A stretch of DNA of 64,000 nt from an uncultured delta proteobacterium (GCA_963737265.1 CAVTRY010000010.1:14075-78074), one strand, 5' to 3'. Positions 17,088 to 59,642 are shown, numbered from the stretch's first letter. Notes: generated from the letters alone by a model not told the origin. Numbers and translations are program-made.

Positions 17088-17131
17088 AAAACAAAACCGC
17101 CTCACCGTCATCGGTGAGGCCGTTTTGTTTT
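17088..17131. terminator. Bidirectional intrinsic terminator between convergent genes
   Basis: AAAACAAAACC-GCCTCACCG tcat CGGTGAGGC-CGTTTTGTTTT hairpin with A and T tracts on either side. Confidence 0.85.
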
Positions 17132-17146
17132 CCCGCAAAGAACTCA

Positions 17147-17443: not shown

Positions 17444-17489
17444 GTTTCTCCTGCTTCCGATGATTTGACCGCCAGTGGGTGGTTGAGGT

Positions 17490-17927: not shown

Positions 17928-17954
17928 GATTCCCCGCACGCCGACGGAGTGTAA

Positions 17955-18030
17955 CCGTCGATCAGCTCCGCAATCTCGGTCAGGGACCAAACGTGGTCGG
18001 CTACGCCAGCGGCCATCGCCGGCGGTGTCG
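17955..18030 (-). pseudogene. C-terminal remnant of an IS1-like DDE transposase
   Basis: Frame reads TPPAMAAGVADHVWSLTEIAELID, the TPAMxAGxxDHVWS terminal motif of these transposases; nothing else of the gene remains. Confidence 0.6.
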
Positions 18031-36900: not shown

Positions 36901-38675
36901 CCGTAATCAACGGCCAAGCCGAGGCGATCGAAAGCGTCTACAACTCCCTAGGGCAGTTGACAAGCTATAGCGACGCGGACCACAACGTGTCAACCTACGA
37001 ATACGACATCGACGGCCGACCCACGAAGGTCTTCGATGGCAAGGGTACGCAGACATACACGTACGACCCCACGAGTGGGCTGCTAGCGACGCTTGTCGAT
37101 TCTGCAGCGGGCACGTTCGCGGGCACCTACGACGTAGAAGGTGAACTGCAGACCGAGACATACCCAAACGGGATGACAGCGAGCTACGAACGCAACGCGG
37201 TCGGACAAGCGACGCGGCTGGCTTACGTCAAAGGGCGATCGACTTGGTATCAGGATCAAGTGAGCCTGTCGATACACGGCCAGTGGCTCAATCAACAAAC
37301 CACTCAGGCTGCCGACAGCTATGCGTACGACAGCCTGGGGCGCATGGTCGCGACCACTGAATCTCCCAATGGAAAGCCATGCGTCGCTTACTTGTATTCC
37401 TACGACGAAGAATCAGACCGCATATCCGAAACAAAGCGCGAAGGTACACCCGGCAGTTGCCCATCGCAGGGCGGCTCGACCACTACACACGCATACGACG
37501 AAGCGAATCGCTTGATAGATTCCGGCGCTGAATACGAACCGCTCGGCGCGGCGACGAAGGTGCCGGCAACGGATGCGGGAGGCCACACCCTCGAAAGCTC
37601 TTATTACGCTAGTGGTGCGCTCTACACGGAGGCGCAGAACAGCCTCAGCAAAACCTACCAGCTTGACCCGACAGGACGTGCACGGGAAACGCTGAGTGAA
37701 GAAGTTGGAAGCAGCGCGGAAGTCAAGCATTTGGTGTCGCATTACTCGAGCTCGAATGACATGTCCGCCTGGACTGAAGAAGCACATGGCGCATTTACGC
37801 GCGACGTCGCGGGAATCGGAGGCGCGATCTGCGCGGTCCAAACGAGCACTGAAGTGTTGCTCGAGATATCGAACCTCCACGGTGACGTCGTCGGCACCGT
37901 CTCGGACAACCAGAGCGCCGAACCCAAGCTCACAAGTGAACCGACAGCGTTTGGGGTACCAACCGCGAAGGCATCAACACCCTATAGCTGGCTAGGCTCG
38001 AGCGGGCTGAAGGTCGAATTCGAAAGCGGGGTGTCAGGCGAAGGCGGCGGTACATACATACCTCAGCTCGGCGTGAGCCTCGCGCCTTCGGAATTGAGCG
38101 GGTCGGCGTCGCAAGATCCGATCAATGAATATCTCAGCGACCGCGAAGCCGCGCAGCCCACGGGCGCCAGGGTGACAACGATGCCTGGAGCGATCGAACC
38201 GCTACCCGTGAATCAGCAGATGGAGGACGAATTTTGGGCGAACCCTCCGTGGGACCAGTCGCCGACGAATGAAGTCGGGGAAGGTATCTCGGTTGGCGGC
38301 GATCCGAACTTTATTTGCGAAGTCAAGGCACCAACGCCAGCTGAAGCGAAGCGGCGGCATGGTCATTTGAAGTTTCGCGGCGGTTATGTGTGCTGGGCGC
38401 TCACCGGCACCGGCGAAGAGGAGCTAGATCATATATCTGCTCTAGTGCAGGTGTGCGCTGAACGGCAGAATCCAGACGTGCCGGGCGGGTGGGAAGACGT
38501 GGGACACTGCAACCCGACGACGTGGGCCGATGCGCCCGTCGCTCCAATCGAATTCGAACACTGGTGCTATGCAGGTTCGATATACCGAGTGTGGGTTTGG
38601 GTGTACTGGTGGGGCGCGGGTCCGATGGTGACCGACCCGGCGCAGCGGCGCAGCAGCTGGACGACGTGCCCGTAG
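30967..38675 (+). CDS. Giant secreted RHS/YD-repeat protein (~2,570 aa) with Ig-like and NHL inserts; apparent frameshift(s) at ~32000-32095
   Basis: RBS AGGAGG and signal peptide; VQVDP; VGPGSLNLLNGD..VSRSYDSR..GPLGPGW; YEYDAKGRL..WDPRI; NHL repeats (PRGLAV..FWVADTANNRV); many YD repeats; NLHGDVVG. Confidence 0.9.
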
Positions 38676-42652: not shown

Positions 42653-43435
42653 ATGGTTCCGCGGATGCGACTCCTTGTGTTCCTAAGATCTGCAGTGGTC
42701 GCGACGGTCATGTGCGGGATGACCCTCGCGTCAGCATCGACGTCGCCACAACCGTCCAATGCTTCCTCCGTGCGCTCGATGTTGCGGGCGAGGTATCGGT
42801 ACGAGCGGACGCTCCGGGACAACCTCGCCAACGCACGCGCCTCCACTAGCGCGTGGGTTAGCGATGTCGCCCGTGAATGTTCCGGAGCACTTGCTCACGC
42901 GCCAGAGGGCACCCAGCTAACGGAAATCCGCCGGGAGGTCAACCTGGCGCCGCTGGCGGTCTTGGATGCGCCCGATCGGGCCGCCGCCCGTCAGATGGCC
43001 CGCGCGATCAAGCGTCTCCGCTGGAGCGACCGGGCACTCGCCAGAGCGGTGCGCGCTTGGCTGACCGCGGTTAGGGCCGGATATACGCTGCCGGTCCCGA
43101 ATCTGTGCAGCGACCTCAAGGCGTGGGTGGGCAGTGACTATCACACGCTCTCGCCCGGGACAGTCGGCTTCACCCGCGCGTTACGGAAACTGTTGTTCTT
43201 CGAAGGCGGAAGCGGCGAACCGGGCCTCGAACAGCGACTCCATAGGTACGAGGATCGACTGACCGCGCGTTTCGCACATCGCCTCAGGTCTTTTTCGGAA
43301 AGGGTCGGTCTGAAGTACCTGAAGAGCTGGCAGGCTGCGGCTGAAGCGCTCAGTAACGACCTGACGCTTCCCGAGGAAGCTCCGGCGGCCGGCAACATCC
43401 ACACCACCGTTCCGACACACGGGGCCGTAGCATGA
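42653..43435 (+). CDS. Secreted alpha-helical hypothetical protein
   Basis: Signal peptide MVPRMRLLVFLRSAVVATVMCGMTLASA inside ORF 41969..43435; ECSGALAHAP and PNLCSDLKAW. Confidence 0.6.
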   Translation: MVPRMRLLVFLRSAVVATVMCGMTLASASTSPQPSNASSVRSMLRARYRYERTLRDNLANARASTSAWVSDVARECSGALAHAPEGTQLTEIRREVNLAPLAVLDAPDRAAARQMARAIKRLRWSDRALARAVRAWLTAVRAGYTLPVPNLCSDLKAWVGSDYHTLSPGTVGFTRALRKLLFFEGGSGEPGLEQRLHRYEDRLTARFAHRLRSFSERVGLKYLKSWQAAAEALSNDLTLPEEAPAAGNIHTTVPTHGAVA

Positions 43436-43624
43436 TCCGAGCCGGCCGGCGGCCCCCCACCCACCCCCGTCGGTCGGCACCTTCAGCCCTGGCGGCGGAG
43501 TAGCGACCACTCAACGCGCCTCGCGCGGACAGGCGCCCCGGGCTAACAGGAGCGCCAGCCCGAGGCAGGATTGGCGCGGGCTTCAGTTGCTCGCAGACTC
43601 TAGGCCGAGCCGTGCCCGCTGAGG

Positions 43625-46426
43625 TTACGGCTCGATACCAAGCCCGGGCGCTCTCGTGCGCGCGCTGTGCGCCGAGCAGGAGGCGGCCGTCGCGCACGGG
43701 CGGCGTCCGGCGAATCCGGTCTGGCGACTCGGGTGCGAGCGAGGAGCCACGCGTGACAGAGCCCGCCGTCGGGTCCTCGATGGCGAGGCGCCGCTGCGCG
43801 AGCGCTCTGAGCTCGCGCGCCGCCGCCATGACGCCAAGATCGGCGCGGTCGCGAAGGAGCGCTCGCTCCAACACCTCGCGAGCGCTCTCATCGTCCTCGC
43901 GCACGACATACGCGGTGTTGCGTGCGCGCCCGCGCGTCATGCCCACGTACACCGAGCGAAAGCCGGCGAGCTCGTCGACGAGCGTGCCGCCGCGCATGAC
44001 CGTGTGCCCCTGGACGCCGTGCACGGTCTGGAAGTAGCAGAGCTCGACGTGCTCGCGCGCGTAGGTGCCAGCCACGGTGACGCAGCGTCCTGCACGCCCG
44101 CGCTGCAGCGTCAGCGCCCCGTCGTCGTGGACGGCGCGCACGGACCAGACCTCGCGGTTTCGCACCTGACCGCCGCGCACCAGCGCGGGACGCCGCTCGT
44201 TATCGCGCGTGGCCACCAGATCGCCCGCGTAGATCGACTGGCCACTTGAGGTCTCGAGCCTGCGTCCGCACTCGAGCGCTCCAGCCTCGATCAGGCGCTC
44301 CTGCGCGCGCTGGCAGAGGTGCGCCGCCTGCTCGCGCGTGGGCACGCAGAAGGCGTAGCGCCGGCCGGAGCGATGCGCCTCGTGCCAGTCGGCGAGCATG
44401 CGCTCGTGGACCTGATCGAGCGCCCCGGAGAAGACCCGACCGTGCGCCAGGTAGGGCTCGAGCGCCTCTGCCCGTCCGAGGCGAAGCTCGCGCGAGGCCT
44501 CGCGCTCCCACGGCGCGTTGAAGCGGTAGACGCGCGCGAGCTCGAAGCTCTCCAGGCGCTCGCGCGCGGCGGCGAACATCCCGCCGCGACCGACGGCGCA
44601 GAGCTGGCGATGGTCGCCGACGAACACGATGCGAAGCCGGTCTGCCTCCGCGACCGCAATGAGTGCGCGCCAGTCCGGGGTGGCGAGCGTCCCGGCCTCG
44701 TCGACGATCAGTGTCGAACCGGCCGGAAGCTGAAGCTCCTCGCGAAGCCGGTTTGGCGTTGCTCGCTCGGTCAGGTAGCGCCGCACGTTCTCCGCGGGAA
44801 GCCCGGTGCTCTCCGAGACGGCCGCCGCCGCGCGTGCCCAGGGAGTGAGCACGAGCGTCCTGCAGTGCTGGTGTTCGAGCACGCGCGCCGCGAGCTTCAG
44901 TGTCGTCGTCTTGCCGCGTCCCCGCTGGGCCGACCACCACACACGCTCGGTGCGAGCCCGCGATCAGCGCCGCCGCGCGCACCTGCTCCTCGGTTGGGAG
45001 AGGCGCGTTCTCGTCGTCGGCCATCAGCTCGGCGGCGGCGTGCGCCACTCGCTCGCAGCTGGCAGGTTCACCGCCCTGTGCGCGCCGCCGCGGCCAGCCA
45101 GCGCTGAAGCGCGCGCTCTTCCTCGAGCAGTGCCGGCGTCGAGTAGCGCTCGAGCGCCGGTTCGCGCGCGAGCGCGGCCGCGCGTCGCGGGCCGTCCTCA
45201 CCGAGTGTCGCGAGGTCGATGCAGTGGCGCGCGATCGCCTCGCCGGCGAGCGCTTCGATCGCGCGCGCCTGGGAGGCGGCGCTGCGGCCGCCTCCATCGC
45301 CGATCCGCATGGCCACCTGGCGCTCGACGTGCTCGCGCGAGAAGACGGAGCGCTCCTCGCTCAGCGCCGCGATCGCCTCGGCGGCGATCTGGGCGGCGCT
45401 CGCGTGGGGCGGGCGAACCAAGGGGTTCGGGTAGATGGCGTCGTGCAAGAGCTGCGGAGCGTCGTAGCCGGCCTCGTGCGCCGCCCCCAGCCAGCCGGCC
45501 CGCAGCGCCTCGAGCGTCTTGGCGCCGCGCTTACGCTCGCGCGAAGCGAGCGCCGCCTGGTCGCGCAGGCGGCACTGCTCCTTGAGCGTCGGGTTGCGGT
45601 CGGGATGACGCTCGCGCCAGCGCGAGAGCTCCCGTTCGTAGCGGCGCTCGATCTGCTCCTTGCGCTTGGAGAAGAGCGCGACGAGCGAGTCAAGGCCCTC
45701 GATCTCCGCCTGGCCCTTCGCCACCGCCCCGAAGCGAAGATGAGGGAAGCGTCTGCGAAGCTCGGAGCGAAGCGCCGACTGATAGATGGCGCCGAAGGCG
45801 AGGACGCCGCGCATCATCGTGGTGGCGTCAAGCGAGCGCCAGCGACCATCTGATCCCTGCACGCGCGCCATCACGAGCGCATGCGTGTGCAGCTGCGGGT
45901 CGAGTGCGCGCGAGGTGCGGTGACGGACGGCGAGCACCGCGAGGCCGCCGATATCGAGACGATGGACTCCGCCGCGCCCGGCGCGAGTGGTGGTGCGCTC
46001 CTCGATCAATGCGAGCGTCGCCGCAACTGCGCTTTCGTGTGCGTCGAGGACGGCGCGTTCGGTTGCCTCTCCGCACAACGAGGCGAGCAGCGAGACGGTC
46101 TTCGGCGCCGAGAAGGTGAGGTCGTAGGCGCGGATCGTGTTCCGGCGCGGCCGCTGCCCCAGCTGGTCGCCGGTTTCCGGATGCTGTCCGGCGAAGATCG
46201 CCTGCAGCTGGTCACGCGTGCCGAGACCCTCGACGCCGAGCGCTTTCGTGCCCTGGCCCCACCAGCGCCCGCCTTCGTCCTCGGAGGCGAGGTAGTAGTC
46301 CTCGACGTGGCCCGTGCCGCGCTGCTTCTTCTGCTCGCAGTCGCCGTCGTCCTGCGCTTGGCGCACGAGGCTCGCGTAGTAGTTGACGGCGTCCCTGCCG
46401 CCCTTGATCGGCGTGACTTTGAGCAT
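43625..46426 (-). CDS. mobF: MobF (TrwC/TraI-type) relaxase fused to a RecD-like helicase; apparent frameshifts
   Basis: MLKVTPI..NYY..DYY, GRWWGQG, YDLTFSAPKTVS and HRTSRALDPQLHTH; helicase VGPAG/GKTT, LIVDEAG, VGDHRQL, TVHGVQG and YVGMTRGR. Confidence 0.93.
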
Positions 46427-46486
46427 CCTTGCCTGGGCTTGAAATCGAAGTGGGCGCCGACCATAAGCCGTGCCTGGGACGTGCGA

Positions 46487-46512
46487 GCACCGCAGGGTGC
46501 ATAGGTGTGCCC
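46487..46512 (+). other. Candidate oriT/nic site of MOBF type
   Basis: GCACC-GCAG-GGTGC hairpin followed by ATAGGTGTGCCC, ~60 bp upstream of the relaxase start; resembles from memory the R388 (GCACCGAAAGGTGCGTATTGTCT) and F/R100 (TGCGT...GTGT) nic regions. Confidence 0.65.
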
Positions 46513-47254
46513 GGCGGGGAGGGCGGCTGCGGAGGCGGTGACGGACGAGGCTGAGGGCTGACGGTGAGCGGCGGTGCTGGTGGCGTGGCTGGAGGGCTGT
46601 GGCGGCGTGGCGCGGGGAATGAGCGGGCTCGTGTGTGGCGGCGGGACGGGGCGAAGAGAATGGTGGCGCGAGTGGCAGCGGAGAGAGCGGGGCTCGATGC
46701 CGTGCGCGCAGCTAGTGGTGGCAGCGAGCTGGGAGCGGGCAACGTGACGACTGGGAGTGCGTCGGCTGCCACCGAGCCTCGGGCAGCGCGCGTTGACAAA
46801 CCCGTTTCAAGCGAACACCTCCAGACATCTCGCGGCTGCGCCGATACCCGAGGGTGATGCAGCTGCTTCCGTGGTGACACGCGACAGCACCCCGAGCGGT
46901 GCGGCTAGGTGGCCGCTACGATGGGCCGCGTTCAGCGATTCTGTTCGTGCCGTTCGCGGGCGTACTCATAATCCTGTCGGACGCTCGGCGTTGGCTGATC
47001 TGCCGATTCTCGTCCTGACCGCGCGGGGTCGGCATCCCGGCATCGACCTTCCGGCGGCGCTTGGCTCGCCAAGCTCCGCGCTCGCTCGGCGCGCGCACAC
47101 CAGCGCTGGCGATGAGCAGTTAGCGCATGCGCGATCGCGCTCCTGTCCTAGCGGCGCAACGCCCGCTGAGAGGGACTGGCTCCGCTAGGACGTTGACGTG
47201 GCCGACTGAGCGCACGCCCGGGGCATGCGGAGGTAGACGAGTGAGACTGCACGG

Positions 47255-48128
47255 CTACGCCTCCACGCTCACGGGGTCGACTCCGAGCGCCCGCGCGATC
47301 AGCGCGAGTGTCTCTGTGCGGATCCACGGCGTCGTGCGCCCCGTCGAGGTGTCGGGCATGATCCCGAGGCGGCGCTTCAGCCACGAGGTGTCGCCGCATT
47401 GATGACCGCCGTGAACGGCGTGGGTGTGTCCGCAGCGAAGAGCGAGCTGCGACCACGAGACCTCTCCACGCGCGACGGCGCGCTGGGCCGCTTCGCGCAG
47501 GCAGCGGCTGAGGACAAAGGCGCCGCGGTCGAGGCTTCGAAGCTCGGCGGCAAGCGTCGAGACCTGGACGTTCGTGGCACGGCCCCTGTGGTACGCGAGC
47601 GCTGCGATCGTCATCGAGCGCGCCGGCTCGTAGGCATCGAGTGCGCCGATCACGCTGCGCAGCGACACCAGCCGTCCAGCGACCGCGATCGTCCTCTGCG
47701 CTCCAGCGAAGCGAACGCTGCGCTGCGTCCAGCTCGCCCGCGTCGAGGCGGTAGCGCGCGCCGTCGGGTGCGCTCAGCACGTCGGCGAACGCCAGCGCCT
47801 CGAGCTCGGCCTGCTGCGGGCGAAGGTCTGAGAGGCGAAGCGCCCGGCAGCACCCGCGTGAGGGGTCGGCCAGGTAGAGCTCGGCGATCAGTGCCGCGTT
47901 GTCGATGCTCGGATCGAGCACGGGCTCATCGGCGAGGATGTGGTCGACGAGGCGGACGTCGGAAACGGCGCCCTCGCTCTGATCCACCACGAGCGTGTTG
48001 CCTTCCACGCCGTCGATGGCGAGGATCGTTCGCTGTGCGCCTTCTGCGTCCTGATAGCAGCCGAGGACCCGTCCGCTCTCGAGCGGGCTGGGTGTCTCGG
48101 GCACTGCGGTATCGGTGAGAGTCGGCAT
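47255..48128 (-). CDS. Hypothetical protein of the mobile element, frameshifted
   Basis: RBS AAAGGAG and MPTLTDTAV; continues as SLRSVIGALDAYEPAR..WSQLALRCG..GDTSWLKRRLG..LIARALGVDPVSV (HTH-like end). Confidence 0.6.
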
Positions 48129-48405
48129 CGTCTGCTCCTTTGCTCTGGGCCCTGCCGCGGGCCGTGATGCCGCGCTCCACGCACGCGTCGCGTGCGAAGC
48201 TGAAGCGGCGACGGACCGCGGGTGGCCCAGAGCGCAGATGAGCTCCGAGAACGACCGCCCTCCCAAGGGCAACTCCTGACGCATGCGCACATCACGTGGC
48301 TCGCCCTCGGCGCGATCGAGCACCTCGAGGCGCTGCCCGACGCGGCGCGAGACGACCACGCGCGCGGAGCGCCCGTCGTCGTAGCGGAGCAGCGTGCGCC
48401 AGGGA

Positions 48406-48684
48406 CTAGATGCCGAGACGGTCTGCACCATGCACCCGGGCGCAGCGACGGTGAGCGACCATCCGCTCGCGCGACCAACCAGGTTCTGACTCGATCGCCT
48501 GCCTGACCGCGAGCTGGAGCCTCAGCGCTCGACGCAGGTGCGAGGGACTTACCGTCGCGGCGCCGTCCTCGCGCGCGAACAGTTCGGCGTCGCGCCAGAG
48601 GCCGTGGCTGTTGGGCGGGCGGAGCGGCAGCACCGCCGCCTCGAGCGCGTGGCGGTGAGCGGGATCATTCGTGCGGGTGTGCAC
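48406..48684 (-). CDS. Small hypothetical protein
   Basis: Strong RBS AAAGGAGG before GTG; co-oriented with the primase and ssb. Confidence 0.45.
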   Translation of the reverse strand: MHTRTNDPAHRHALEAAVLPLRPPNSHGLWRDAELFAREDGAATVSPSHLRRALRLQLAVRQAIESEPGWSRERMVAHRRCARVHGADRLGI

Positions 48685-48744
48685 GTCGAGCCTCCTTTGC
48701 TCGGTGTTCTTGGGGAAGCGGGCCGCCTCGGTGGAGGTGCTGGC

Positions 48745-49711
48745 TCATCGCCGCACGCCGAAGCGCTCATCGAGCCCGCGCTGCAATCTGCGAAAGTCGC
48801 CGCCGCTGGCCGGGATGCCGAAGAGCAACGAGGCGAACGTGTAGATGTCGCCGCCAAGCGGCTTGCCGTCCTGCGTCTTGCAGCCGAAGCAGCACCAACC
48901 GCGCTGCGGATCGCGGTAGGCGTGAAGCGACGGGCTCTCGTCGTCGTGGAACGGGCAGCGGACCTTGCCGGCGCGCGACACGGTGCGGCCGCTCAGAGCA
49001 CGGGGATATAGACGCGGGCGCTGATCGCGAGCAGCGGATCAGCGCGCGGTCCCGGGCGCTCTGGAGCGGTGTCTGTCGTCGACGGCGTCTCGAGCGCAGG
49101 CAACCTTGCGAGCAGCGCGACAAACGGGTAGCAGCGGTCTGGCTCGAATGCGAGCAGCCGCACCGGCGTGGGCGGCGAGTGCTTGTGATTCACGGACCCT
49201 GCGGGTCTGAGAATTGCCGCCGGGCCGCATACGGCACCGGCATCTGAGCCGAGCGCCGCCGCGAGCCGTCGATTCCCTTCGCCGACCTCCTCCGGCGAGA
49301 GCGCCGCGCCGACGCTCCAATAGGCGTGGCAGTTGCAGCCCGAGCCGGAGCCGACGAGCATCGTCGGCGCGGGCACGTCAGCAAGCGCGGCCAGCGCCGC
49401 CTCGCTGTCGCAGTCGGCCCAGAGCAGCCGGCAGCTGCCCGAGCGCGTCGCGTCCACCGGCACGCCTCAGACGCGGGGCGACGCCGACGTAGACGTCGGC
49501 GCTGCTCGCTCAGCGCCAGCAGCCGTTCGATTGGGCCCGAGGCGCCCATCGCGTGGAACTCCTGCGCCATGCCGTCTCCGCCGTGGTGGCGCGAGCGGAC
49601 GTCGAGCAGCGCATCGGTAGGCGCGCCCCGCGCCAGCAAGGAGAGGTAGCGCGCCAGTTCGCGCTCGCGCTCGGCCTGGTCGGCTGACGTCCACGTCGAT
49701 CGCTCCGACAC
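48745..49711 (-). CDS. RepB'-like DNA primase domain fused to a CHC2 zinc finger, frameshifted
   Basis: LLWADCD, PTMLVGSG..HAYW, NRRLAAALGSD and ILRPAGSVNHK; C-terminal RCPFHDDESPSL..WCCFGC..GGDIY. Confidence 0.8.
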
Positions 49712-49716
49712 GGCGT

Positions 49717-49744
49717 GGGGCGCCGGCGCAGGAGCCGGCGCCCC
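49717..49744. other. Perfect 11-bp GC hairpin between ssb and the primase gene
   Basis: GGGGCGCCGGC gcagga GCCGGCGCCCC. Confidence 0.6.
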
Positions 49745-49750
49745 TTTGCG

Positions 49751-50110
49751 CTAGGCGGCGAGCGCCTCCGCCTCAGCCGTCTCGGTGGCGCCCTCTGCCT
49801 TCGGCGAGAGGAAGGTCACCTCGTCGGCGATCACGCGGTGCGCGGAGCGCCGGGAGCCGTCGGAGGCCTGCCACTCGCGGTACTCGAGCCGTCCGTGGAC
49901 ACCGACCAGCTGGCCCTTGGTGAGCTTCGCGCAGGTCTCGGCGTAGGTGCCGTAGACGCAGACGTCGAAGTAGCCGGTCGGCTGCTTCTCGGCGCGCTGG
50001 TCGAAGGCGATCCGCAGCTCGCAGACGCTCGAGCCAGAGGGCAGCGAGCGAAGCTCTGAGTCGCGGGTCAGGCGGCCGGTGAACGAAGTGCGTGGTCTTA
50101 GGTCGTACAT
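49751..50110 (-). CDS. ssb: Single-stranded DNA-binding protein (119 aa, no acidic DDxPF tail)
   Basis: GRLTRDSELR, YFDVCVYGTYAE and LTKGQLVGVHGRLEYREW; RBS AAGGAGG. Confidence 0.92.
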   Translation of the reverse strand: MYDLRPRTSFTGRLTRDSELRSLPSGSSVCELRIAFDQRAEKQPTGYFDVCVYGTYAETCAKLTKGQLVGVHGRLEYREWQASDGSRRSAHRVIADEVTFLSPKAEGATETAEAEALAA

Positions 50111-50279
50111 CTGTTCCTCCTTGTGGGGGTTGGTGATTACGCGCCTACACACGCCGGCGAAGCCGGCGATAATCGGCGCGGGCCGATCACCAACCCCAAG
50201 GAGGGGCGATGGGCTACCGAGACCGCCGATCTGCGGTCGGCCGTGGAGTGCGAGACGCGACACGTCTCACAAGCAAGGA
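50053..50279. repeat. ~225-bp direct repeat, copy 1 (ssb 5' end plus structured upstream region)
   Basis: Near-identical to 52798..53021; contains a long hairpin at 50116-50204. Confidence 0.95.
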
Positions 50280-50374
50280 CGCGCTGGGTTACGGGGAGCT
50301 ATTCAGCACCGCTGTTGCAGCCGACACCGCACTGCCTGATCGCGCACGACGCAAGCTGTCCCCCGCGAGGGACC

Positions 50375-50668
50375 TCAGTGAGGGGGGCGCTCCTGCCAGC
50401 TGGCGACCAGACACTCGCGCAGATCGTCCGCAAGTTCGATGTGGAAAGGCGTTGCGTAGAACTCGAACCGCGTGGCATCACAGCCACCCCTGCGTAAATC
50501 TCCGAGCAGGTCGCCGAGGTGGTCCTCGCGGGCCCGTTGCGCTATCCGTACGAGTGCCGTCGTCGGATCGTCGCACAGTGGCACCGCGGTACCCACCCGA
50601 CTCGTCCCACCGACCCGGTAGCGCTCTCCATCGTCCTCAAGCTCAGCAAAGACCTGCGCTTCGGGCAT
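50375..50668 (-). CDS. Hypothetical protein
   Basis: 97-aa ORF with RBS-like GAGG and globular composition. Confidence 0.5.
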   Translation of the reverse strand: MPEAQVFAELEDDGERYRVGGTSRVGTAVPLCDDPTTALVRIAQRAREDHLGDLLGDLRRGGCDATRFEFYATPFHIELADDLRECLVASWQERPPH

Positions 50669-50918
50669 AACCTCGCTTCGATCGGCGGCGGGTACGGGCC
50701 GGCTACGGCCAGGCCGCTCGGGTTATTCGACGCTTCGGGAGCCTCAACTCGACGCCGGTTCTAATGAGCGTCGGTGTCATGGTGCCCGAAGCCTACGTCG
50801 CAGAAGCAGGGCAGGCCCTGAGTCCCGGCGCCCCGCCACCCCTTGCGAGCGATCGGGTCGCGCGGCGTTTTCGTCTCGCATGGGTTCTGTGTTACGGTGC
50901 CGAGTGGTGCGGGGGCAC

Positions 50919-52253
50919 ATGGTCAAACGAGTTACCAACAGACTTGGTATCGCGCTTGTGGCGATCATCGTCGGAGTGGGGGTCGTCGAGTCGGAGTGCG
51001 CGTCCGCGGAAACGCCGGATCTTGTCGCGCCGGCGGCGGTCGTGCCGCTCGCTCCGCCGCCGCCAGACCCGGTCGTAGCCGAAGCGTACGCGAACACGTT
51101 TCACGTGACCACGGCGGTCGCACAAGAACGCCTCACGCTCGAGGAGCGCGCGGGCAACATCGCGAGTGACCTCGGCAGCGCTCTCGGGTCATCCTATGCG
51201 GGTGTCTGGTTTGATAATTCGACGGGGCGGTTCAACATCGCCGTTGCGTCGCCGTCGTCTGCAACTTCGCCTGCGGCCGTCGCGAAGGTAAACGCCGCAC
51301 AAACAGTAGCGTCTGAGCTCGAAGTGTCAGCCGCGACTGACATCAGGACGGTGGGCACGAGCCTTGATGCCATCACGGCGGCTCAATCCAAGATTGATCA
51401 AAGCCTTCACCAGTTGGTGCTCGACGACGAGTTGCAAACCGCCCCCAACGAAGAAATCGACGAGCTGGAGCTTCTTGCATCTGCCTCTGCCTCCGCTGCG
51501 GACAAACGCCGCATTGAAGCCACGGCTACGGAAGATGGCGTGCCAACGCGGATCGTCACCCGACCGGCGTCAGACTTCGAAGTGCATACCGCTTCCTGTT
51601 CGTTCCCCGACTGCGGGAGGCCGATAGAGGGCGGGGTAGAAATCTGGACCGGCTCAGAATTCTGCAGCGCTGGATATCTGGCGCAGGGCAATGAACCTCC
51701 GTATCACTGGTTCGTCATCACCGCGGGTCATTGCGGGCGCGGCCGCCCGCTGACTTGGTACGCCTCGACCGGTGGTGAAGTGCATCAGCTAGGCACCATG
51801 AACCACGCGGTCTGGAACATCGATGGCGACTACGGGCGCATCGACATAACCGGGACCTGGTGGGGGATCGGCGTCGAGGAACCGTTTAGCGCCTTTTGGG
51901 GAATCAATACTCATTACCCAACGCGGTACACCGGATGGTCAGTTGAAGGTACGTATGGTTGCAGAACGGGCGCGGCTGAGAACGGCGCTCAGTGTGGCAC
52001 GATTCTCCACAGAGGGATGACGATCAACGAGGGCGGAGTGGAAGTGGCCGGCGAGTTCGAGGTTAGTGCCTGCGCCAATGAAGGCGATAGTGGTGGGCCG
52101 TTCATGATGAACTACTACGCCGTTGGGATCTTTACGGCTCTCAACGCCCGGTGCGGTTCCGGTGGCGCTGTGAGCTACTACAGTGAGGTCATGAACGCCA
52201 TCGTCCCTGCTAACCTCAATGTCACGATTGATACGATCTACAGTGGCGAATAG
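50919..52253 (+). CDS. Secreted S1 (alpha-lytic/streptogrisin-like) serine protease with prodomain
   Basis: Signal peptide; prodomain YAGVWFD; CSAGY, ITAGHC, DYG, CRTGA and GDSGGP give a complete catalytic triad. Confidence 0.92.
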   Translation: MVKRVTNRLGIALVAIIVGVGVVESECASAETPDLVAPAAVVPLAPPPPDPVVAEAYANTFHVTTAVAQERLTLEERAGNIASDLGSALGSSYAGVWFDNSTGRFNIAVASPSSATSPAAVAKVNAAQTVASELEVSAATDIRTVGTSLDAITAAQSKIDQSLHQLVLDDELQTAPNEEIDELELLASASASAADKRRIEATATEDGVPTRIVTRPASDFEVHTASCSFPDCGRPIEGGVEIWTGSEFCSAGYLAQGNEPPYHWFVITAGHCGRGRPLTWYASTGGEVHQLGTMNHAVWNIDGDYGRIDITGTWWGIGVEEPFSAFWGINTHYPTRYTGWSVEGTYGCRTGAAENGAQCGTILHRGMTINEGGVEVAGEFEVSACANEGDSGGPFMMNYYAVGIFTALNARCGSGGAVSYYSEVMNAIVPANLNVTIDTIYSGE

Positions 52254-52713
52254 AGCTAGTCGATTTTTGGTGCTCGGGGGCGTCTGGGCGGCGTCCGTTG
52301 CCGGAGGGGCTTACCCTGCGGCCTCCGCCCCAGGAGCGCAAGCCATTCCATGTGTCGTCACGGGTCAAGGGAGGTTTGTGGGCGCCGTGCAGGGACGCGA
52401 CTATCACGGTTGGCTCGCTGTTGAATGTCTCTCGCCTGGCGACACGCTCTCGAACGTCTCGATTCATTGGGGCGACGGGTTGGTGAGCGGCGGTACCGTG
52501 GGTTACGAGCCGCCGAACAGCTCGGGGTACGTTACCGCGCTAGTCGTAGGTGATCACGTGTACAGCCGAGCCACGTGCACCACATCGAAACGTCGATGTA
52601 CTTCCGGCTACAAACCCTCGGTCACAGCTACCGATGAGCCGAGCGGGAAATCGGTGTGGGGCGGCGGAGGCGTGGTACTCGTTAGCGGCAAAGCACGCAA
52701 GACGCATCGATAG
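52219..52713 (+). CDS. Small secreted Ig/PKD-like protein
   Basis: Signal-like stretch; SIHWGDG and GDHVYSRA as in PKD-type domains. Confidence 0.55.
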   Translation: MSRLIRSTVANRASRFLVLGGVWAASVAGGAYPAASAPGAQAIPCVVTGQGRFVGAVQGRDYHGWLAVECLSPGDTLSNVSIHWGDGLVSGGTVGYEPPNSSGYVTALVVGDHVYSRATCTTSKRRCTSGYKPSVTATDEPSGKSVWGGGGVVLVSGKARKTHR

Positions 52714-52797
52714 TTCCCCGGGACGGTGGGTGAGCGACCGACGCGACTGGCCCTAGGGCAAACCAGGCACCCGCAGGTACCCGCGGCGCAGCGGTCG

Positions 52798-53021
52798 GCT
52801 CTGAGTCACGCGTCAGGCGGCCGGTGAACGAAGTGCGTGGTCTTAGGTCGTACATCTGTTCCTCCTTGTGGGGGTTGGTGATTACGCGCCTACACACGCC
52901 GGCGAAGCCGGCGATAATCGGCGCGGACCGATCACCAACCCCAAGGAGGGGCGATGGGCTACCGAGGCCGGTTTTCGGTCGGCCGTGGAGTGCGAGACGC
53001 GACACGTCTCACATGCAAGGA
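52798..53021. repeat. ~225-bp direct repeat, copy 2, with a truncated ssb 5' fragment (19 codons)
   Basis: Encodes MYDLRPRTSFTGRLTRDSE and then diverges; differs from copy 1 by synonymous and loop/bulge changes. Confidence 0.95.
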
Positions 53022-53312
53022 GGGGTTCTTCTTCGGGGAGGTGCCGAGGGTCGCATCGAATCCCGAACCGGGTTCTCCGCTCTCAAAGTGTCGATGGTTG
53101 GGCGCCCGACGAGCGCCGCCGATCGCGCTCTACGCAGTACGGGTCATGAGCCTGCCAGACGGACGCCAACCGGACGAGGTGGAGATCCTCAAGCGGCAGG
53201 GCGGGCCCGCGCGACTGCGCGCCGACACCGGTCCTGACCGTGCGCTCGAGACTGGCGGCCTGCGTTCCCTCTTCGACGCGCTGACCCGCCGTCGCGGATC
53301 AGGACGTGACTT

Positions 53313-53750
53313 CTACGGATTCTTCGAGCTCCCAGCGACCCCCGGTGTAGCGCAGGCCGGTCGTTTCGTTGCCGTTGTAGACGGTGGCGCGGTCGCCTGA
53401 CACAACGATGCGGCTATTAGGCTTGAGGGACCCGGAAACTTGCCCTTCTCCTGCGCGGCCCGCTCACCGACAATCTGCGCACAGCTCTTCCCTTTGAAGC
53501 TGGCGTCCATGAGGGAGCGCGCGGAGTCGGTAAGCAGGCCGCAGAAGGCTGCGTAACGCCCAGCCCGAAGGTCGGCTTCCGCTCCGCGAATGGTCGCGCG
53601 CACGCCAGCAGCGGACTGCGAGTGTGTGTTGGTCGGCGGCGATCCGGATCCGCAACCGCCGAGCACAATCGCTATCCCGCATCCAGTGAGGACCTGCCGG
53701 CGCATGCGTCCCTGTCTGCCCTTCGGGTCGTCTCTCGCGAGCCGGATCAC
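53313..53750 (-). CDS. Putative lipoprotein
   Basis: MRRQVLTGCGIAIVLGGC lipobox; YAAFCGLLT..SCAQ. Confidence 0.55.
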   Translation of the reverse strand: MIRLARDDPKGRQGRMRRQVLTGCGIAIVLGGCGSGSPPTNTHSQSAAGVRATIRGAEADLRAGRYAAFCGLLTDSARSLMDASFKGKSCAQIVGERAAQEKGKFPGPSSLIAASLCQATAPPSTTATKRPACATPGVAGSSKNP

Positions 53751-53966
53751 GGTATCCAGCCGCAGTTTCGGCTGCCGTGCTCCGTCGGTTGATGCTTCCG
53801 GGGGAGGGCTTCGTGTGATCGAGAGCAGCAGTCACCGAGGCGGCGCTTGATTCTCTGCCAAGCGTTCCAAAGAGGAGGCGTGTCCGGCCAGTGACGCCAT
53901 CCCTGAGGTTCCCGTTTCCGGCCGCAAGCGGGCGTGTATCGGCACGCTGGCACCCTCATGCAGACG

Positions 53967-54329
53967 CTAGCCCCCGAAGAGAAACGTCGCCATGTCGCCG
54001 CCGGGAAGGCATGCGAATAGGCCGACGCCCTCCGCGACCACCCGCCATGCCTCAAAGTCCTCTTGGGCGGCACATCGAAGGCGAGTGCCATCTGACAGCA
54101 ACAGCTCCAGCGCGTCTGTCTTGACCGCTGCGTCGCTGATCGAGATGCCCACCAGCGCGAGATCCAGGGGAGACGGGTCGCGCCGGTCACCTTGTCTAAC
54201 TCGGTGCTCGGGGCGCCACAGATCGACGTAGAGTCGCGGCTCCGGCCGATCCCCGCGATCGAGCACGAGCCGAACGCCCGCCTCATCGTTCTGCACGCCG
54301 CCAATCACGTTGTCCACCAGGAAATCCAA
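53967..54329 (-). CDS. DUF6188-like protein (immunity-type candidate)
   Basis: LALVGISISDA..LELLLSDGTRL..FEAW..G..ACLPGG pattern recognised by eye. Confidence 0.55.
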   Translation of the reverse strand: MDFLVDNVIGGVQNDEAGVRLVLDRGDRPEPRLYVDLWRPEHRVRQGDRRDPSPLDLALVGISISDAAVKTDALELLLSDGTRLRCAAQEDFEAWRVVAEGVGLFACLPGGDMATFLFGG

Positions 54330-54697
54330 CTCGCCTCGGCTGACGTCCTCCGAGTCGCGTGGGCAGGCCAGTCCCAGCGGGCGGGCGCGACGGCTTCTCT
54401 CGTTGGCATGGGCTTCTGGTCCTCGGTTCGATCCGCGCTCGAGGTCCGCAACCGCGTGTCCCCGGTGCGAGGGTTAACGTAATCGCCAGCCTCATCCGTG
54501 TAAAGCATGTACCCGTCCGGATACGCCGAGAAGCCGGGGCACATAAAGCGGATCGTGCACGCGTTGTTCATCGGGCGCTTGCCCGGTTCCGACAGGATAA
54601 GTCCGCGTCCCCGCGCCTCCGGCCATACTCTGGCTCTGACGCTCGGCCGGGTAGTCCGTAGCCTGCGATTTGCGTGTCGACGAGCTCTTGGAGCCAT
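54330..54697 (-). pseudogene. Orphan polymorphic-toxin-like C-terminal fragment
   Basis: GRGLILSEPG..TIRFM..YPDGYMLY..G.YVNPRTG resembles RHS C-terminal tips; no RHS body upstream. Confidence 0.4.
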
Positions 54698-54828
54698 TCA
54701 GGGGCCGTCATGGTTGGAGGTTCGGAATATCTCTTGCGTCGTGTCTCAAGCTCTTCCTGGCGGGACGGCCGCGTGTACTCCGCACCATCGGGATGCGCCC
54801 CTTACCGCAGTCCTATCCGAGGCCTTAG

Positions 54829-55362
54829 CTACCCCCGGATCCGTACTGCGTCCACCAACTGAACGAACCTAAGTTCGTCGTCCGCTGACGCAAACGCACG
54901 ACGTGGGATAAAGACAGCGCCACGCGTAGCCCTAAGCACGTAGGTGCTTCCCACTCGGTCGAGCCCACTCCAGTAGCTCCAGTCAGAGATGTAGCGCGCA
55001 GGTGGGTGAGCCGCCACCACGAGTGGTCTCAGGAGAATCCATACGTTTGCTCATCGCGTAGCTGTGTATAACGACCCCAGCTTCGGATCGGCGGCACGAT
55101 GACACACAAGCCGAGGTAAAACGCCACAAGCGCAACTCCGACGAACACGCCCTCGACCGCGAGGGCGGCCGCTGCGGCTAGCAGTCAGCACGACGAAACC
55201 GGCGTACCGCTTTGCGCACCACCTGTACCAGGTACTGCGGAGGAACTCCGCCCGGCTCAGGGTGAACCGCACGACGATCTCGTCGGCGGATGGATCCTGT
55301 CGTAGTCGAGACCGGCGGACACCCTCGCCATTATCGGCGGAGAGCCGGTGCATCTTGAACAA
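54829..55362 (-). CDS. YcxB-like membrane protein, frameshifted
   Basis: IVVRFTLSRAEF N-terminus; C-terminal AVFIPRRAFASADDELRFVQLV. Confidence 0.55.
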
Positions 55363-58066: not shown

Positions 58067-58357
58067 ATGAGTCAGCGAAACCTGGCCGAGCCGCTAGGCG
58101 GCTCCAGAGGCGGCTCGCCGGTGCCGCGCCGCGCGACCCCGAGGGCTGCTCGCTCTCTGCGGCCGATCGAGCAGGTGCCGCGCCTGCTACTGACCCGCAA
58201 GGAGGCCGCCGGTGCATTGGGCGTCAGCATGGATTCCTTCGAACGCCACTTCATGCCGCACCTCCGCTGCGTGCGCAAGGGCAGCCTGCGGCTCTACCCG
58301 GTGCGGGAGCTCGAGCGGTTCCTGGAGGACAACGCCAGTCGGCCGCCAGCCGCCTAG
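58067..58357 (+). CDS. Excisionase-like HTH protein
   Basis: LLLTRKEAAGALGVSMDSFERH..CVRKGSLRLYPVRELERFL, immediately upstream of the integrase. Confidence 0.8.
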   Translation: MSQRNLAEPLGGSRGGSPVPRRATPRAARSLRPIEQVPRLLLTRKEAAGALGVSMDSFERHFMPHLRCVRKGSLRLYPVRELERFLEDNASRPPAA

Positions 58358-58445
58358 CGCCACGTCCCACCTATGTCGTAGCGTCGAGGCTCGACGAAGG
58401 GAGCAGTCCATGGAAGACAACGCCGCGTGGCAAGGAGGACCATCC

Positions 58446-59642
58446 ATGAAGAGCGCAGCTCAACGACGGCGCGACGAGGGAATCGAGGTCCGACATGCGC
58501 GAAGCTGCCCGAGCTTGGTCGGCGGTCGCTGCAACTGCGAGCCCTCGTACCGCGCCATCGTGTGGTCCGCGCGAGATCGCAAGCTGGTGCGAAGCCGATG
58601 GTTTCGTGGGGATCGCGCAGCTGCCAAGGCATGGCGGGACGATGCTCGCTCGGCGGCTCGCAAAGGAGCGCTTCGCCCCACAACCCGGGTGACGCTGAAG
58701 AAGGCTGGCGAGCAGCTGATCGCCGGCATGAAGGATGGCTCGATCCGCAATCGCTCCGGCGACCGCTACAAGCCGAAGACGATCAGGGGCTACGAGCAGG
58801 CGCTCCGGCTCCGGGTCTACCCGGAGCTCGGTGACCTTCTGATCCAAGACGTGCGGCGCTCCGATTTCCAGAGTCTCGTGGAGCAGATGACCGCTGACGA
58901 TCAAGAGCCATGCGATCCGTCCACGATTCGCAACACGCTGCTGCCCGTACGCGTGATCTACAGGCGGGCGCTCTCCCGCGACGAAGTGGGCGTGAACCCC
59001 ACCGCCGGTCTTGAACTACCGGCGGTTCGAGGACGACGCGAGCGCATCGCGGCGCCGGAGGAGGCCGCCGAGCTCTTGGCTGCACTCGAGCAGGGCGATC
59101 GGCCGATCTGGGCCACGGCGTTCTATGCAGGATTGCGCGCTGGAGAGCTGCAGGCGCTGCGGTGGGAGGACGTGAACCTGGCCGGGGGCCGAATACGCGT
59201 CGAGCGGACGTGGGACTCGCACGAGGGCGCTGTGGAGCCGAAGAGCCGCAGCGGCAGGCGCACCGTGCCGATTCCCGCGGTACTGCATGATCATCTGGCC
59301 GAGCACCGTGCGATCAGGCCGTGGAGCGCCGGACTCGTGTTCGGTCGCCTGCCCGATAAGCCGTTCAGCTTCGCGGTGACGAAGCGTGCCCGTCGTGCGT
59401 GGGAAGAGCGGAAGCTACGGCCTCTCACGCTCCACGATTGCCGCCATACCTACGCATCAATGATGATCGCTGCCGGCGTGAACGCCAAGGCGCTCAGCAC
59501 CTTCATGGGCCATGCGTCGATTCAAATCACGTACGACCTCTACGGGCACCTGATGCCGGGGAGCGAGAGCGAAGCCGCCAGTCTGCTCGACGCATTTCTG
59601 CGGCGCGCAGACACGGCCGGACGAATCGCTGCGCTCGGCTGA
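58446..59642 (+). CDS. int: Tyrosine recombinase/integrase
   Basis: RBS AGGAGG; GLRAGEL..LRWEDV, PKS, HDCRHTYAS and MGHASIQITYDLYGH give the full R-K-H-R-H-Y set. Confidence 0.95.
   Translation: MKSAAQRRRDEGIEVRHARSCPSLVGGRCNCEPSYRAIVWSARDRKLVRSRWFRGDRAAAKAWRDDARSAARKGALRPTTRVTLKKAGEQLIAGMKDGSIRNRSGDRYKPKTIRGYEQALRLRVYPELGDLLIQDVRRSDFQSLVEQMTADDQEPCDPSTIRNTLLPVRVIYRRALSRDEVGVNPTAGLELPAVRGRRERIAAPEEAAELLAALEQGDRPIWATAFYAGLRAGELQALRWEDVNLAGGRIRVERTWDSHEGAVEPKSRSGRRTVPIPAVLHDHLAEHRAIRPWSAGLVFGRLPDKPFSFAVTKRARRAWEERKLRPLTLHDCRHTYASMMIAAGVNAKALSTFMGHASIQITYDLYGHLMPGSESEAASLLDAFLRRADTAGRIAALG

Follow-up and report, generated by a model that had tools for sequence, protein, structure and literature searches.

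A conserved, strand-specific hairpin at the start of ssb: a possible single-stranded-DNA promoter or primer site in integrative elements

A hairpin upstream of ssb in a 64,000-nt stretch of DNA from an uncultured delta proteobacterium (GCA_963737265.1 CAVTRY010000010.1:14075-78074; hereafter the window, the whole stretch analysed) is structured, conserved among relatives and adapted to the strand that serves as the ssb template, as its covariation and mismatch bias demonstrate. From the sequence we predict, at about even odds, a promoter or primer site of the Frpo kind, working in single-stranded DNA. Most likely, the hairpin would act as a signal for starting transcription or priming after transfer, and would do so only on single strands. 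The hairpin is part of a direct repeat with the following features.

49751-50110, - strand: ssb, 119 aa (Pfam SSB 2.4e-23; translation)
50053-50298: direct repeat copy 1, with ssb codons 1-19, the hairpin and 94 nt upstream
50116-50204, + strand: hairpin copy 1, an imperfect 89-nt stem-loop folding best on the + strand
50146-50151, + strand: TACACA, the internal-loop side facing ATAATC, template side; not kept in relatives
50152-50168, + strand: apical stem CGCCGGC (50152-50158), GAA (50159-50161), GCCGGCG (50162-50168); the stem is kept across the family, the GAA loop is not
50168-50173, + strand: GATAAT, a -10-like hexamer whose G forms the last stem pair and whose ATAAT is unpaired; the family-wide xAxxxT position
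52798-53040: direct repeat copy 2, with an ssb stump (52798-52855, 58 nt), the hairpin (52861-52949) and GATAAT (52913-52918); covariance model R1, 33.6 bits

The first-pass annotation had described two copies of a ~225-bp repeat upstream of ssb; both copies are present, but the unit measures ~245 bp. The copies are 98% identical over 173 nt (50053-50225 versus 52798-52970) and 84% identical in their second part (50225-50298 versus 52967-53040), and both BLAST and the covariance model find these two only in the 6.55-Mb genome. Since the first 58 nt of ssb lie inside the repeat, copy 2 carries only a stump of the gene. The two copies represent one duplication and are not independent support for conservation. 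In each, folding reproduces the 89-nt + strand pairing proposed earlier: a basal stem of CCTCCTTG..GGGGTTGGTGAT with ATCACCAACCCC..AAGGAGG, a middle stem of CGCGCC with GGCGCG and the apical stem, with GATAAT exposed in the internal loop opposite TACACA. The Shine-Dalgarno sequence of ssb, AAGGAGGA on the - strand, sits within the basal stem. The side hairpin differs in sequence between the copies and remains paired in both, also as annotated. As DNA, the 104-nt hairpin reaches -38.6 kcal/mol, far below the shuffle mean of -18.4 (z -7.7), and a 196-nt piece gives z ~-4.8 on either strand, with 0/200 shuffles as good. Folding of both strands as DNA and RNA yields a stable structure that favours the + strand, and the covariance-model match to copy 1 (50104-50224) scores 35.5 bits with R1 on the + strand versus 19.8 on the - strand.

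The genes around the repeat place it in an integrative element with a relaxase.

43644-46426 as listed, - strand: TrwC-family relaxase (45068-46426) and AAA_30 helicase (43350-44942), split over three frames
47261-49620, - strand: primase-like gene 3' of ssb, split over at least three frames; CHC2 zinc ribbon at 48745-48981
50299-52797, + strand: cargo between the repeat copies, with an S1-protease-like ORF (50880-52253; Trypsin 1.3e-4) and a second ORF (52219-52713)
58212-59642, + strand: tyrosine integrase at the island edge (Pfam Phage_integrase 3.1e-17)

In the relative L025 the primase-like homologue is a single 702-aa ORF, and relaxase and helicase form one 1001-aa open frame in the relative. 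Judged from these split frames, and from the finding that Pfam detects no type IV secretion gene in the window ORFs tested, the window's element looks degraded. No stretch homologous to the cargo was found in L025, and a related soil contig departs from the window sequence exactly at 50298. An ORF at 50209-50670 (+ strand), which starts at the mirrored Shine-Dalgarno sequence, was rejected as a gene because its product is kept neither in copy 2 nor in L025.

The hairpin belongs to a family of 22 same-strand copies (rows) in 12 genomes. Model R1, built from 10 relatives, none of them of the window's type, still recovers both window copies and that of L025. The next gene encodes SSB in 17 of the 22 rows, one row precedes an ssb stump, and the remaining four precede other genes, each with a Shine-Dalgarno sequence and start codon no more than 20 nt from the hairpin base; in all 22 rows the base abuts or overlaps these two signals. 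All copies lie in relaxase, coupling-protein or integrase contexts, with no relaxase found by Pfam in 42 ORFs, over 9-20 kb, upstream of the G681, G636 and G639 copies. Several hairpins occur in each of G552 and G551, and in the latter two (G551_2 and G551_4), 14 kb apart, have opposite orientations. Because the rows are kin, these counts overstate their independence. The apical region varies by type: G421 has a TGT loop, 18 other copies carry an insert of ~70-85 nt, and the d(GCGAAGC) tip to which the first-pass annotation drew attention is restricted to the window and its closest relative. A joint MAFFT alignment of both hairpin types was dropped because it wrongly set the 5' arm against the apical insert.

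Conservation follows the structure. Between the window and L025, identity is 90.8% in the hairpin (109/120 columns), 79.2% in the ssb coding sequence and 47% in the upstream DNA. Across 55 pairs, 87.4% of cells are paired, versus 29-46% in slid controls; 12 pairs have changed on both sides, a covariation score reached by 0/500 shuffles, and the variable stem covaries rather than keeping its sequence. Homologous ssb upstream regions thus show the covarying stems and retained structure expected of a conserved fold. This fold is also strand-specific. Isolated G.T-type mismatches, counted in a strand-neutral way, number 12 on the mRNA-complementary strand versus 1 on the other, and 21.5 versus 2.0 over 21 rows; from this concentration it follows that the folding strand is the template strand of ssb. 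The same strand folds better in 13/13 hairpins, has the lower z-score in 10/12 and gives an alifold energy of -107.5 versus -88.6. Abundant G.T pairs are more usual in RNA than in DNA, which counts against a signal read in single-stranded DNA.

Such strand bias would suit any signal read in single-stranded DNA, including a site for priming only (ssi or sso). There the folded strand would serve to start complementary-strand synthesis, recognised either by the primase-like protein that the element encodes or by RNA polymerase laying down a short primer, and would have no part in ssb expression. We consider this unlikely, although a primase-like gene follows ssb in the window, L025, G552, G681 and G690 (Pfam RepB_primase (weak), CHC2 zinc ribbon, Toprim; E 0.003 for the weak RepB_primase match of the L025 702-aa protein). 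The ssiA and ssiB sites of RSF1010, ~40 nt long and not known to carry promoter-like motifs, are read by the plasmid RepB' primase; as single-stranded-DNA hairpin signals beside an element-encoded primase, they resemble our case. The marks of ssoA-type origins are a conserved loop hexamer of TAGCGT type (CS-6) and an RSB site. By direct reading, the window hairpin is without such a loop motif, neither TAGCGT nor TAGCGA occurring in 50053-50298. A functional sso is described for ICEBs1 (PMC4595007). The ssoA-type origins of rolling-circle plasmids and sso1 of ICEBs1 are strand- and orientation-specific hairpins on which RNA polymerase acts in single-stranded DNA, and such hairpins occur in integrative conjugative elements (PMC4595007); unlike the window hairpin, they have no link to a gene start or to a Shine-Dalgarno sequence. 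The placement of the hairpin base at these signals in every row would be needless for a pure origin, and the multiple copies within one element precede different genes.

The fold could alternatively work in RNA, the ssb-sense leader hiding the Shine-Dalgarno sequence as a translational operator (for SSB autoregulation or as a thermosensor, for example). The ssb-sense RNA is indeed stable (-96.2 kcal/mol, z -4.9), with its Shine-Dalgarno sequence paired to CCUCCUU, so that read-through mRNA would bury the ribosome-binding site in the hairpin stem, as the first-pass annotation had it, and the basal stem between Shine-Dalgarno and anti-Shine-Dalgarno sequences is kept in most family rows. This reading is nevertheless rather improbable: on the mRNA strand the isolated mismatches counted above would be A.C rather than G.U, that strand is the worse-folding one in all 13 hairpins, and the hairpin has no Rfam 15 match at E <= 1, whether in window positions 48000-55000 or in the loci of six relatives. 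What Rfam does report in these loci has no relation to the hairpin, falls below threshold or lies in another place. If the + strand were transcribed across the start of ssb into a structured antisense RNA, this would agree with the G.U-rich strand being the + strand, whose RNA fold is the most stable of three tested (-104.5 kcal/mol). We regard it as very unlikely, as it would require a promoter inside every downstream gene, four of which are unrelated to ssb, and the hairpin is neither followed by a T-run terminator nor matched in Rfam.

The preferred reading, a signal in single-stranded DNA, draws further on the internal loop. An xAxxxT motif occurs 0-3 nt after the central stem in 22/22 family rows, versus 10% of control windows, and its first base is G, C or A, not T, in 21/22; the -10-like A...T signature at the stem/loop junction is thus kept across the family. 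Shifted by one base, the signature is identical on the complementary strand and therefore gives no direction. The folded window-type hairpin contains no -35 element. In relatives, TTGRAG or TTGCGC in the apical insert lies 15-21 nt from the hexamer, a spacing too variable for us to adopt it as a -35. In duplex DNA, TACACA-N16-GATAAT forms a sigma-70-like promoter directed away from ssb, and the least probable of the readings is an ordinary duplex control region built on it, with the CGCCGGC palindrome as operator, or a cruciform: the promoter has 9/12 matches and is present in both repeat copies (2 sites versus 0.5 expected), that of copy 1 aiming at the protease cargo, but its -35 half and spacing are not kept (CCCACA and GACAAT in L025), its halves are >100 nt apart in relatives with the apical insert, the divergent gene is absent at copy 2 and in L025, the variable stem does not keep its sequence, and neither a duplex site nor a cruciform would give a mismatch bias on one strand.

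A candidate oriT was located next to the relaxase gene.

46473-46512, + strand: candidate oriT nic region, with the inverted repeat GCACC-GCAG-GGTGC (46487-46500) followed by ATAGGTGTGC; non-coding, just upstream of the relaxase start
46887-46916, + strand: a second, similar inverted repeat in the same orientation, GCACC-CCGAGC-GGTGC followed by GGCTAGGTGG

In the nic site of R388, a 4-nt loop closes hairpin arms of 5 nt, and ~9 single-stranded nt precede the nick (PMC4176350). Matched by description to this MOBF/TrwC site, the candidate at 46473-46512 has the same geometry (5-nt arms, 4-nt loop) and the same position next to the relaxase gene. Its nic-region block is conserved between two elements while both flanks of the block diverge. 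Relaxases typically lie in the lagging region adjoining oriT, as stated in the available portion of PMC11541004. Together, the R388-like inverted repeat beside the relaxase start and this rule suggest that the + strand is transferred and that ssb belongs to the leading region, probably ~3.6 kb into it, with the + strand as its template. With oriT placed by position and geometry, the hairpin would thus be on the side expected to enter the recipient first, in agreement with the initial proposal. Both flanks of the candidate inverted repeat are conserved, which counts against the deduced transferred strand.

The closest known parallels are the Frpo elements, which the consulted sections of PMC11541004 place directly upstream of plasmid ssb genes. 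Frpo1 and Frpo2 (ssp1a/ssp1b) of plasmid F and ssi3 of ColIb-P9, so far as the available parts of PMC11541004 and 10.64898/2026.01.09.698686 describe them, share with our hairpin a long imperfect stem upstream of ssb whose template is the presumed transferred strand, a -10-like element in a mismatched part of the stem, the possibility of several copies per element and possibly the combination of promoter and primer functions; Frpo transcripts also prime DNA synthesis, according to the part of 10.64898/2026.01.09.698686 seen. The differences are considerable. In the Frpo/ssi class, host RNA polymerase transcribes single-stranded but not double-stranded DNA. Both -35 and -10 lie within the stem in that class, whereas the window type has only the -10-like element, with neither -35 nor UP element. 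At 89 nt the window hairpin is also much shorter, its basal stem includes the gene's Shine-Dalgarno sequence, and it is found in high-GC integrative elements, probably of Actinomycetota type, where the Frpo/ssi elements belong to enterobacterial plasmids. PLSDB includes F-like plasmids. A distant-mode blastn search of its 72,556 plasmids, which stands in for a Frpo comparison, gave no match at E <= 0.01 to window:50100-50300 or L188:2940-3150; the sequence-similarity criterion for Frpo/ssi given in the accessible part of PMC11541004 is BLAST E 1e-6. Plasmid F also carries ssp2, a GC-rich leading-region stem-loop with promoter elements that was found by structure and is unrelated to Frpo in sequence (PMC13478746); the portion of 10.64898/2026.01.09.698686 consulted presents it as a structural barrier prolonging the single-stranded state. 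The likeness lies in the GC-rich stem-loop, the leading region and the promoter elements, but ssp2, unlike the window hairpin, has recognisable -10 and -35 boxes and precedes ardB-type genes.

We propose the following mechanism. When single, the + strand, which is the ssb template and probably the strand transferred in conjugation, would fold into the long imperfect stem. Its central CGCCGGC stem would end in a pre-opened internal loop, whose non-template arm presents an A and, four bases on, a T. Their arrangement would be like that of -11 and -7 in the -10 element of a sigma-70-type promoter, where the upstream fork junction forms. RNA polymerase may then bind with no need of a -35 and read along the other arm into ssb and on into the primase-like gene, producing a transcript with a leader of ~30-40 nt and a free Shine-Dalgarno sequence. 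This transcript might in addition serve as primer for the complementary strand, a role demonstrated for the Frpo element of plasmid F. Once the DNA turned double-stranded, the signal would be lost, and read-through mRNA containing both arms would bury the ribosome-binding site.

More tentatively, the hairpins could possibly form a widespread, undescribed class of -35-less single-stranded-DNA promoters, in which a ready-made bubble displays no more of the promoter than an A at -11 and a T at -7, and in which duplex-derived mRNA has its ribosome-binding site masked by the same inverted repeat. They would then be strandedness sensors, allowing SSB, primase and a few other early genes to be made only from fresh (transferred or rolling-circle) single strands, and cargo such as the 2.5-kb protease block would preferentially be joined at the edges of the hairpin-ssb module.

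The actinobacterial, Thermoleophilia-type host first suggested is not borne out: the nearest clusters to the window RF2 are labelled Nitrospirota, Acidobacteriota and Pseudomonadota, while the relatives' host order looks like Actinomycetota, both by Atlas taxon labels that are weak hints. DNA searches in 89 genomes of the window's order returned only short chance matches (E >= 4.4e-4); among 401 genomes of its class, SSB matched in 15 at E <= 1e-15, all others at 41-46% identity, and the primase-like protein matched only in the window's own genome. A pattern search of genome contigs gave one relative among 139 matches. In metagenome contigs, a protein search yielded 118 pattern matches and no relative, and none of 89 stretches with the main-stem pattern resembles the hairpin element; the 135 records of a PLSDB protein search are all <60% identical. 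No RNA run is listed as containing the locus, and two soil DNA runs of one study, which contain 7-8% of the sampled sequence words, do not cover 50472-53075 and are uninformative. The family is, on sequence grounds, a new one, a conserved and strand-specific structure that falls in no catalogued family, although the supplementary candidate list of PMC11541004 may include relatives.

Even if the single-stranded-DNA reading is wrong, the hairpin remains a conserved, strand-specific structure outside the catalogued families. Single-stranded-DNA promoters are how conjugative plasmids turn on protective genes before becoming double-stranded, and in the accessible parts of PMC11541004, 10.64898/2026.01.09.698686 and PMC13478746 they are shown experimentally in enterobacterial plasmids only. 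If our reading is true, the 89-nt hairpin would be a compact test object for a polymerase that recognises a pre-opened -10 without a -35, and, in poorly studied phyla, model R1 would be a marker for leading regions and early genes, some of them possibly anti-defence genes. A sequence-unrelated, simpler family in high-GC integrative elements would then make the single-stranded-DNA promoter a general strategy.

The hairpin upstream of ssb lies within a direct repeat whose first part (50053-50225 and 52798-52970) matches at 98% and whose second part (50225-50298 and 52967-53040) matches at 84%; these two copies are the only ones in the whole 6.55-Mb genome. In each of them, the pairings, the tip and the internal loop described in the first-pass annotation are present at the positions it gave, with the 89-nt stem-loop at 50116-50204 (+) in copy 1 and 52861-52949 in copy 2. 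The hairpin alone (104 nt, DNA parameters) folds with -38.6 kcal/mol vs -18.4 kcal/mol for dinucleotide shuffles (z -7.7), and folding as DNA and as RNA, the check that the annotation had proposed, gave a z of about -4.8 for a 196-nt piece as + DNA, + RNA and - RNA alike. The surrounding features are:

49751-50110, - strand: ssb, encoding a 119-aa SSB and adjoining copy 1 (Pfam 2.4e-23)
50299-52797: cargo block of 2.5 kb between the hairpin copies, on the strand opposite to ssb
50880-52253, + strand: S1-protease-like ORF in the cargo block
52219-52713, + strand: second cargo ORF
58212-59642: tyrosine integrase

The Shine-Dalgarno (SD) sequence of ssb sits within the basal stem of the hairpin. 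Since the repeat takes in just 58 nt of ssb, copy 2 contains a mere stump of the gene. The two copies are the product of a duplication around the cargo block and are therefore not independent evidence of conservation. At the left joint of this block, ssb is cut after codon 19, and a related soil contig departs from the window exactly at 50298, so that the module edge looks like a recombination joint. A putative duplex promoter, TACACA-N16-GATAAT, in copy 1 is directed toward the cargo block. Upstream of the hairpin, a motif CCTTGCTTG-N15-GCGTCTCGC is found at 50270-50240 (-) and at 2773-2810 of L025, the closest related locus; both window copies carry it, one of them altered at one position, and it may serve ssb as a duplex promoter or regulator site. 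The short window SSB ends in ...AEAEALAA and is devoid of the acidic DDIPF-like tip typical of chromosomal SSBs.

On the - strand, ssb is the first gene of a row that continues with a primase-like gene, a spacer of ~0.8 kb of non-coding DNA, a TrwC relaxase and an AAA_30 helicase. The primase-like gene carries a CHC2 zinc ribbon and is homologous to a 702-aa ORF with a weak RepB_primase match. Pfam found no type IV secretion gene among the ORFs tested (31 + 31), and the term "mobilizable" therefore fits the element. Both the relaxase-helicase gene (43644-46609) and the primase-like gene (47261-49620) are split into three reading frames vs single intact ORFs in the related genome G418, which may reflect a decaying element undergoing pseudogenisation or assembly indel errors. 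The L025 ssb itself has one extra A after codon 5.

The GC content rises from 55-60% in 1-18000, where housekeeping genes (SpoU methylase, MgsA, DsbD, RF2, Lnt) occupy the first 17 kb, to 65-73% in the island at 18000-64000. This jump could mark a large island or a chimeric contig, and the contamination of the genome is rated 7.6%. The nearest clusters of the window RF2 are labelled Nitrospirota, Acidobacteriota and Pseudomonadota; LeuS of G639, which belongs to the order of G418, falls closest to Actinomycetota; and the element SSB is 43-56% identical to SSBs of that order vs 41-46% for the window's own class. From these comparisons, a non-actinobacterial host may carry an island of actinobacterial type, or the contig may be a chimera. 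The narrower label "Thermoleophilia-type", attached to the element in the first-pass annotation, drew support from none of our analyses. The high-GC island also holds a 2257-aa ORF (31902-38675, +) with RHS, NHL and DUF6531 domains and a polymorphic-toxin-type resemblance. An ORF called as 199 aa at 8291-8890 (+) combines BrnT toxin and CopG antitoxin domains and may be two adjacent genes read through.

The window element is rare, with no close relative in its own order or class or in two metagenome scans. The species-representative genome G418 encodes, at L025, an SSB 71% identical to that of the window, in the same gene order of hairpin, ssb, primase-like gene, spacer and relaxase. The hairpin is the best-conserved stretch between the two elements (90.8% identity; the ssb coding sequence has 79.2%, the spacer that follows ssb 57% and the upstream DNA 47%), and the differences fall in loops and bulges, save for one stem pair in which both sides changed and pairing was not restored. 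G418 has two further relaxase-linked ssb genes whose upstream regions share the hairpin arms, with a conserved insert of ~85 nt in place of the GAA tip. In this long type (e.g. L188:2951-3145), the apical insert contains near-invariant blocks GCGGAACCGA, GAGGGGAAGGGAGC and GCGACCTTG on the folding strand, conserved in sequence beyond structural need.

A DNA search with one of these G418 upstream regions matched 14 of the 301 genomes of its order, eight of them across the hairpin itself. Ten such sequences from published genomes, aligned on the strand complementary to the mRNA (alignment A5), gave an RNAalifold consensus from which a covariance model, R1, was built with no window-type sequence included. 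R1 nevertheless recovers the two window copies in full (35.5 and 33.6 bits) as well as L025 (23.8 bits), with the apical insert scored as a 71-position deletion. It also retrieved more distant members from a further 151 genomes (G551, G421, G530 and G509), bringing the family to 22 copies in 12 genomes, a set that excludes four opposite-strand echoes.

In A5, 55 pairs are formed with 87.4% of cells paired, vs 29-46% for slid partners, a control inflated by the structure coming from A5 itself. The covariation that the first-pass annotation had named as a test is present, with a score of 0.199 vs 0.152 for shuffled alignments, reached by 0 of 500 shuffles; pairs changed on both sides number 12 (shuffled mean 8.4, reached by 25 of 500). 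The stem just above the nearly invariant CGCCGGC stem differs wholly in sequence between lineages while its pairing is kept.

Where one strand forms a G.T (or G.U) pair, its complement has an A.C mismatch, and such pairs report on the folding strand. We aligned each left arm with the reverse complement of the right arm, a strand-neutral procedure, and counted isolated transitions with two matches flanking each side. The G.T reading lay with the strand complementary to the mRNA in 12 cases and with the mRNA strand in one. When 21 copies were each compared with their own reverse complement, the count was 21.5 vs 2.0 (13 leaning one way, 1 the other, 7 tied), and in the seven newly found copies 9 vs 2. 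The window type has no isolated transition mismatches and so contributes nothing to this test. With DNA parameters, 13 of 13 hairpins are stabler (by 1.8-13.3 kcal/mol) when folded on the strand complementary to the mRNA, and the z-score is lower there in 10 of 12. Base composition does not explain the bias, the G+T share of the folding strand being 0.49-0.55; its direction is consistent, though kinship among the copies makes the counts overstate independence. The one-strand bias argues against a duplex site or cruciform, and likewise against a function in the ssb mRNA. The hairpin is a real, conserved, strand-specific element.

An unpaired motif accompanies this structure. In all 22 copies, a hexamer xAxxxT starts 0-3 nt past the last base of the 3' arm of the CGCCGGC stem, in 14 of them one base past it, vs 10% in control windows of the same sequences. 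The hexamers are GATAAT, GACAAT, GATAGT, GAAAAT, GACACT, CAAAAT, CAAACT, CAACAT, AAACAT, CAACCT, GAGAAT, TAGGGT, CACCCT and CAGGCT; the first base is T in one copy only. In the window fold this first base is the last one paired in the stem, and the unpaired stretch begins at the A. This placement corresponds to the layout of a sigma-70-type open complex, whose last base pair is at -12 and in which -11A and -7T are recognised as single bases. An A and a T spaced by four also occur, displaced by one base, on the opposite strand, so the motif is compatible with both directions.

The next gene encodes an SSB in 17 of the 22 copies and is an ssb stump in one; the other four precede two genes of unknown family, one weakly DUF3072-like gene and one ECF-sigma-like gene. 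In every newly found case, the hairpin base has an SD and a start codon no more than 20 nt away. In G552 (L192:190-324), two copies ~3.3 kb apart share an orientation, one preceding ssb and the other following the primase gene, and G551 has five (e.g. L207:159-335 and 1501-1689). Several copies per element occur in the same orientation in these genomes, before ssb and unrelated small genes. The copy G551_4 (L210), before the ECF-sigma-like gene, is oriented opposite to G551_2, 14 kb away. Genes for coupling proteins (TraG/VirD4), DUF4913, Toprim primases, TrwC relaxases and integrases lie nearby. SSB homologues (E <= 1e-20) occur in 230 of the 301 genomes of G418's order, mostly as a single match, but R1 matches in 6 of 151; the hairpin therefore marks mobile-element ssb rather than ssb generally.

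Upstream of the relaxase gene, 47-86 nt before its start, the window and G418 share a conserved, non-coding block of 40 nt (46473-46512), with divergent DNA on both sides. Within it lies an inverted repeat (arms of 5 nt, loop of 4 nt), the geometry described in PMC4176350 for the R388 nic site, which is followed by about nine single-stranded bases before the nick. A second, similar inverted repeat (46887-46916) has the same orientation as the candidate nic hairpin (46487-46512) and lies 400 nt farther from the relaxase gene. Both sides of the inverted repeat itself are conserved, so sequence alone does not name the nicked strand. According to PMC11541004, relaxases typically occupy the lagging region beside oriT and are last to enter, and the SSB genes of plasmids are placed so that the transferred strand is their template for transcription. 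By this analogy, the + strand would be the transferred strand, the primase-like gene and ssb would enter first, and the hairpin would lie ~3.6 kb from the candidate nick, on the template strand.

Among known systems, the hairpin comes closest to the single-stranded-DNA promoters Frpo1/2 (ssp1a/b) and ssp2 of plasmid F and ssi3 of ColIb-P9. The window hairpin resembles them in its position before ssb, its presumed strand logic and its mismatched -10-like hexamer; it differs in having no -35 or UP element, a third of the length and an SD inside the stem. No similar sequence was found among 72,556 PLSDB plasmids, and no Rfam family matches the hairpin. A literature search on sso or ssDNA promoters with Actinobacteria returned no description of such an element, and the main texts of PMC11541004, PMC13478746 and 10.64898/2026.01.09.698686 contain no word starting with "Actino".

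Our analysis shows the structure, folding strand, motif and context of the hairpin, while polymerase binding, the transcription start and the switch on strandedness that the first-pass annotation suggested are inferred. The most likely reading, to which we give about even odds, is that the hairpin represents a new family of single-stranded-DNA promoters or primer sites. In the mechanism we propose, the hairpin would form when the + strand is single, and polymerase would bind the ready-made bubble and, copying the left arm, read on into ssb and the primase-like gene, with a leader of ~29 nt (window) or ~38 nt (long type). This RNA would leave out the anti-SD arm and so have a free SD. It could also prime the complementary strand, as for Frpo, whose transcript also primes DNA synthesis (10.64898/2026.01.09.698686). 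In duplex DNA, the signal would be gone, and read-through RNA would fold and bury the SD.
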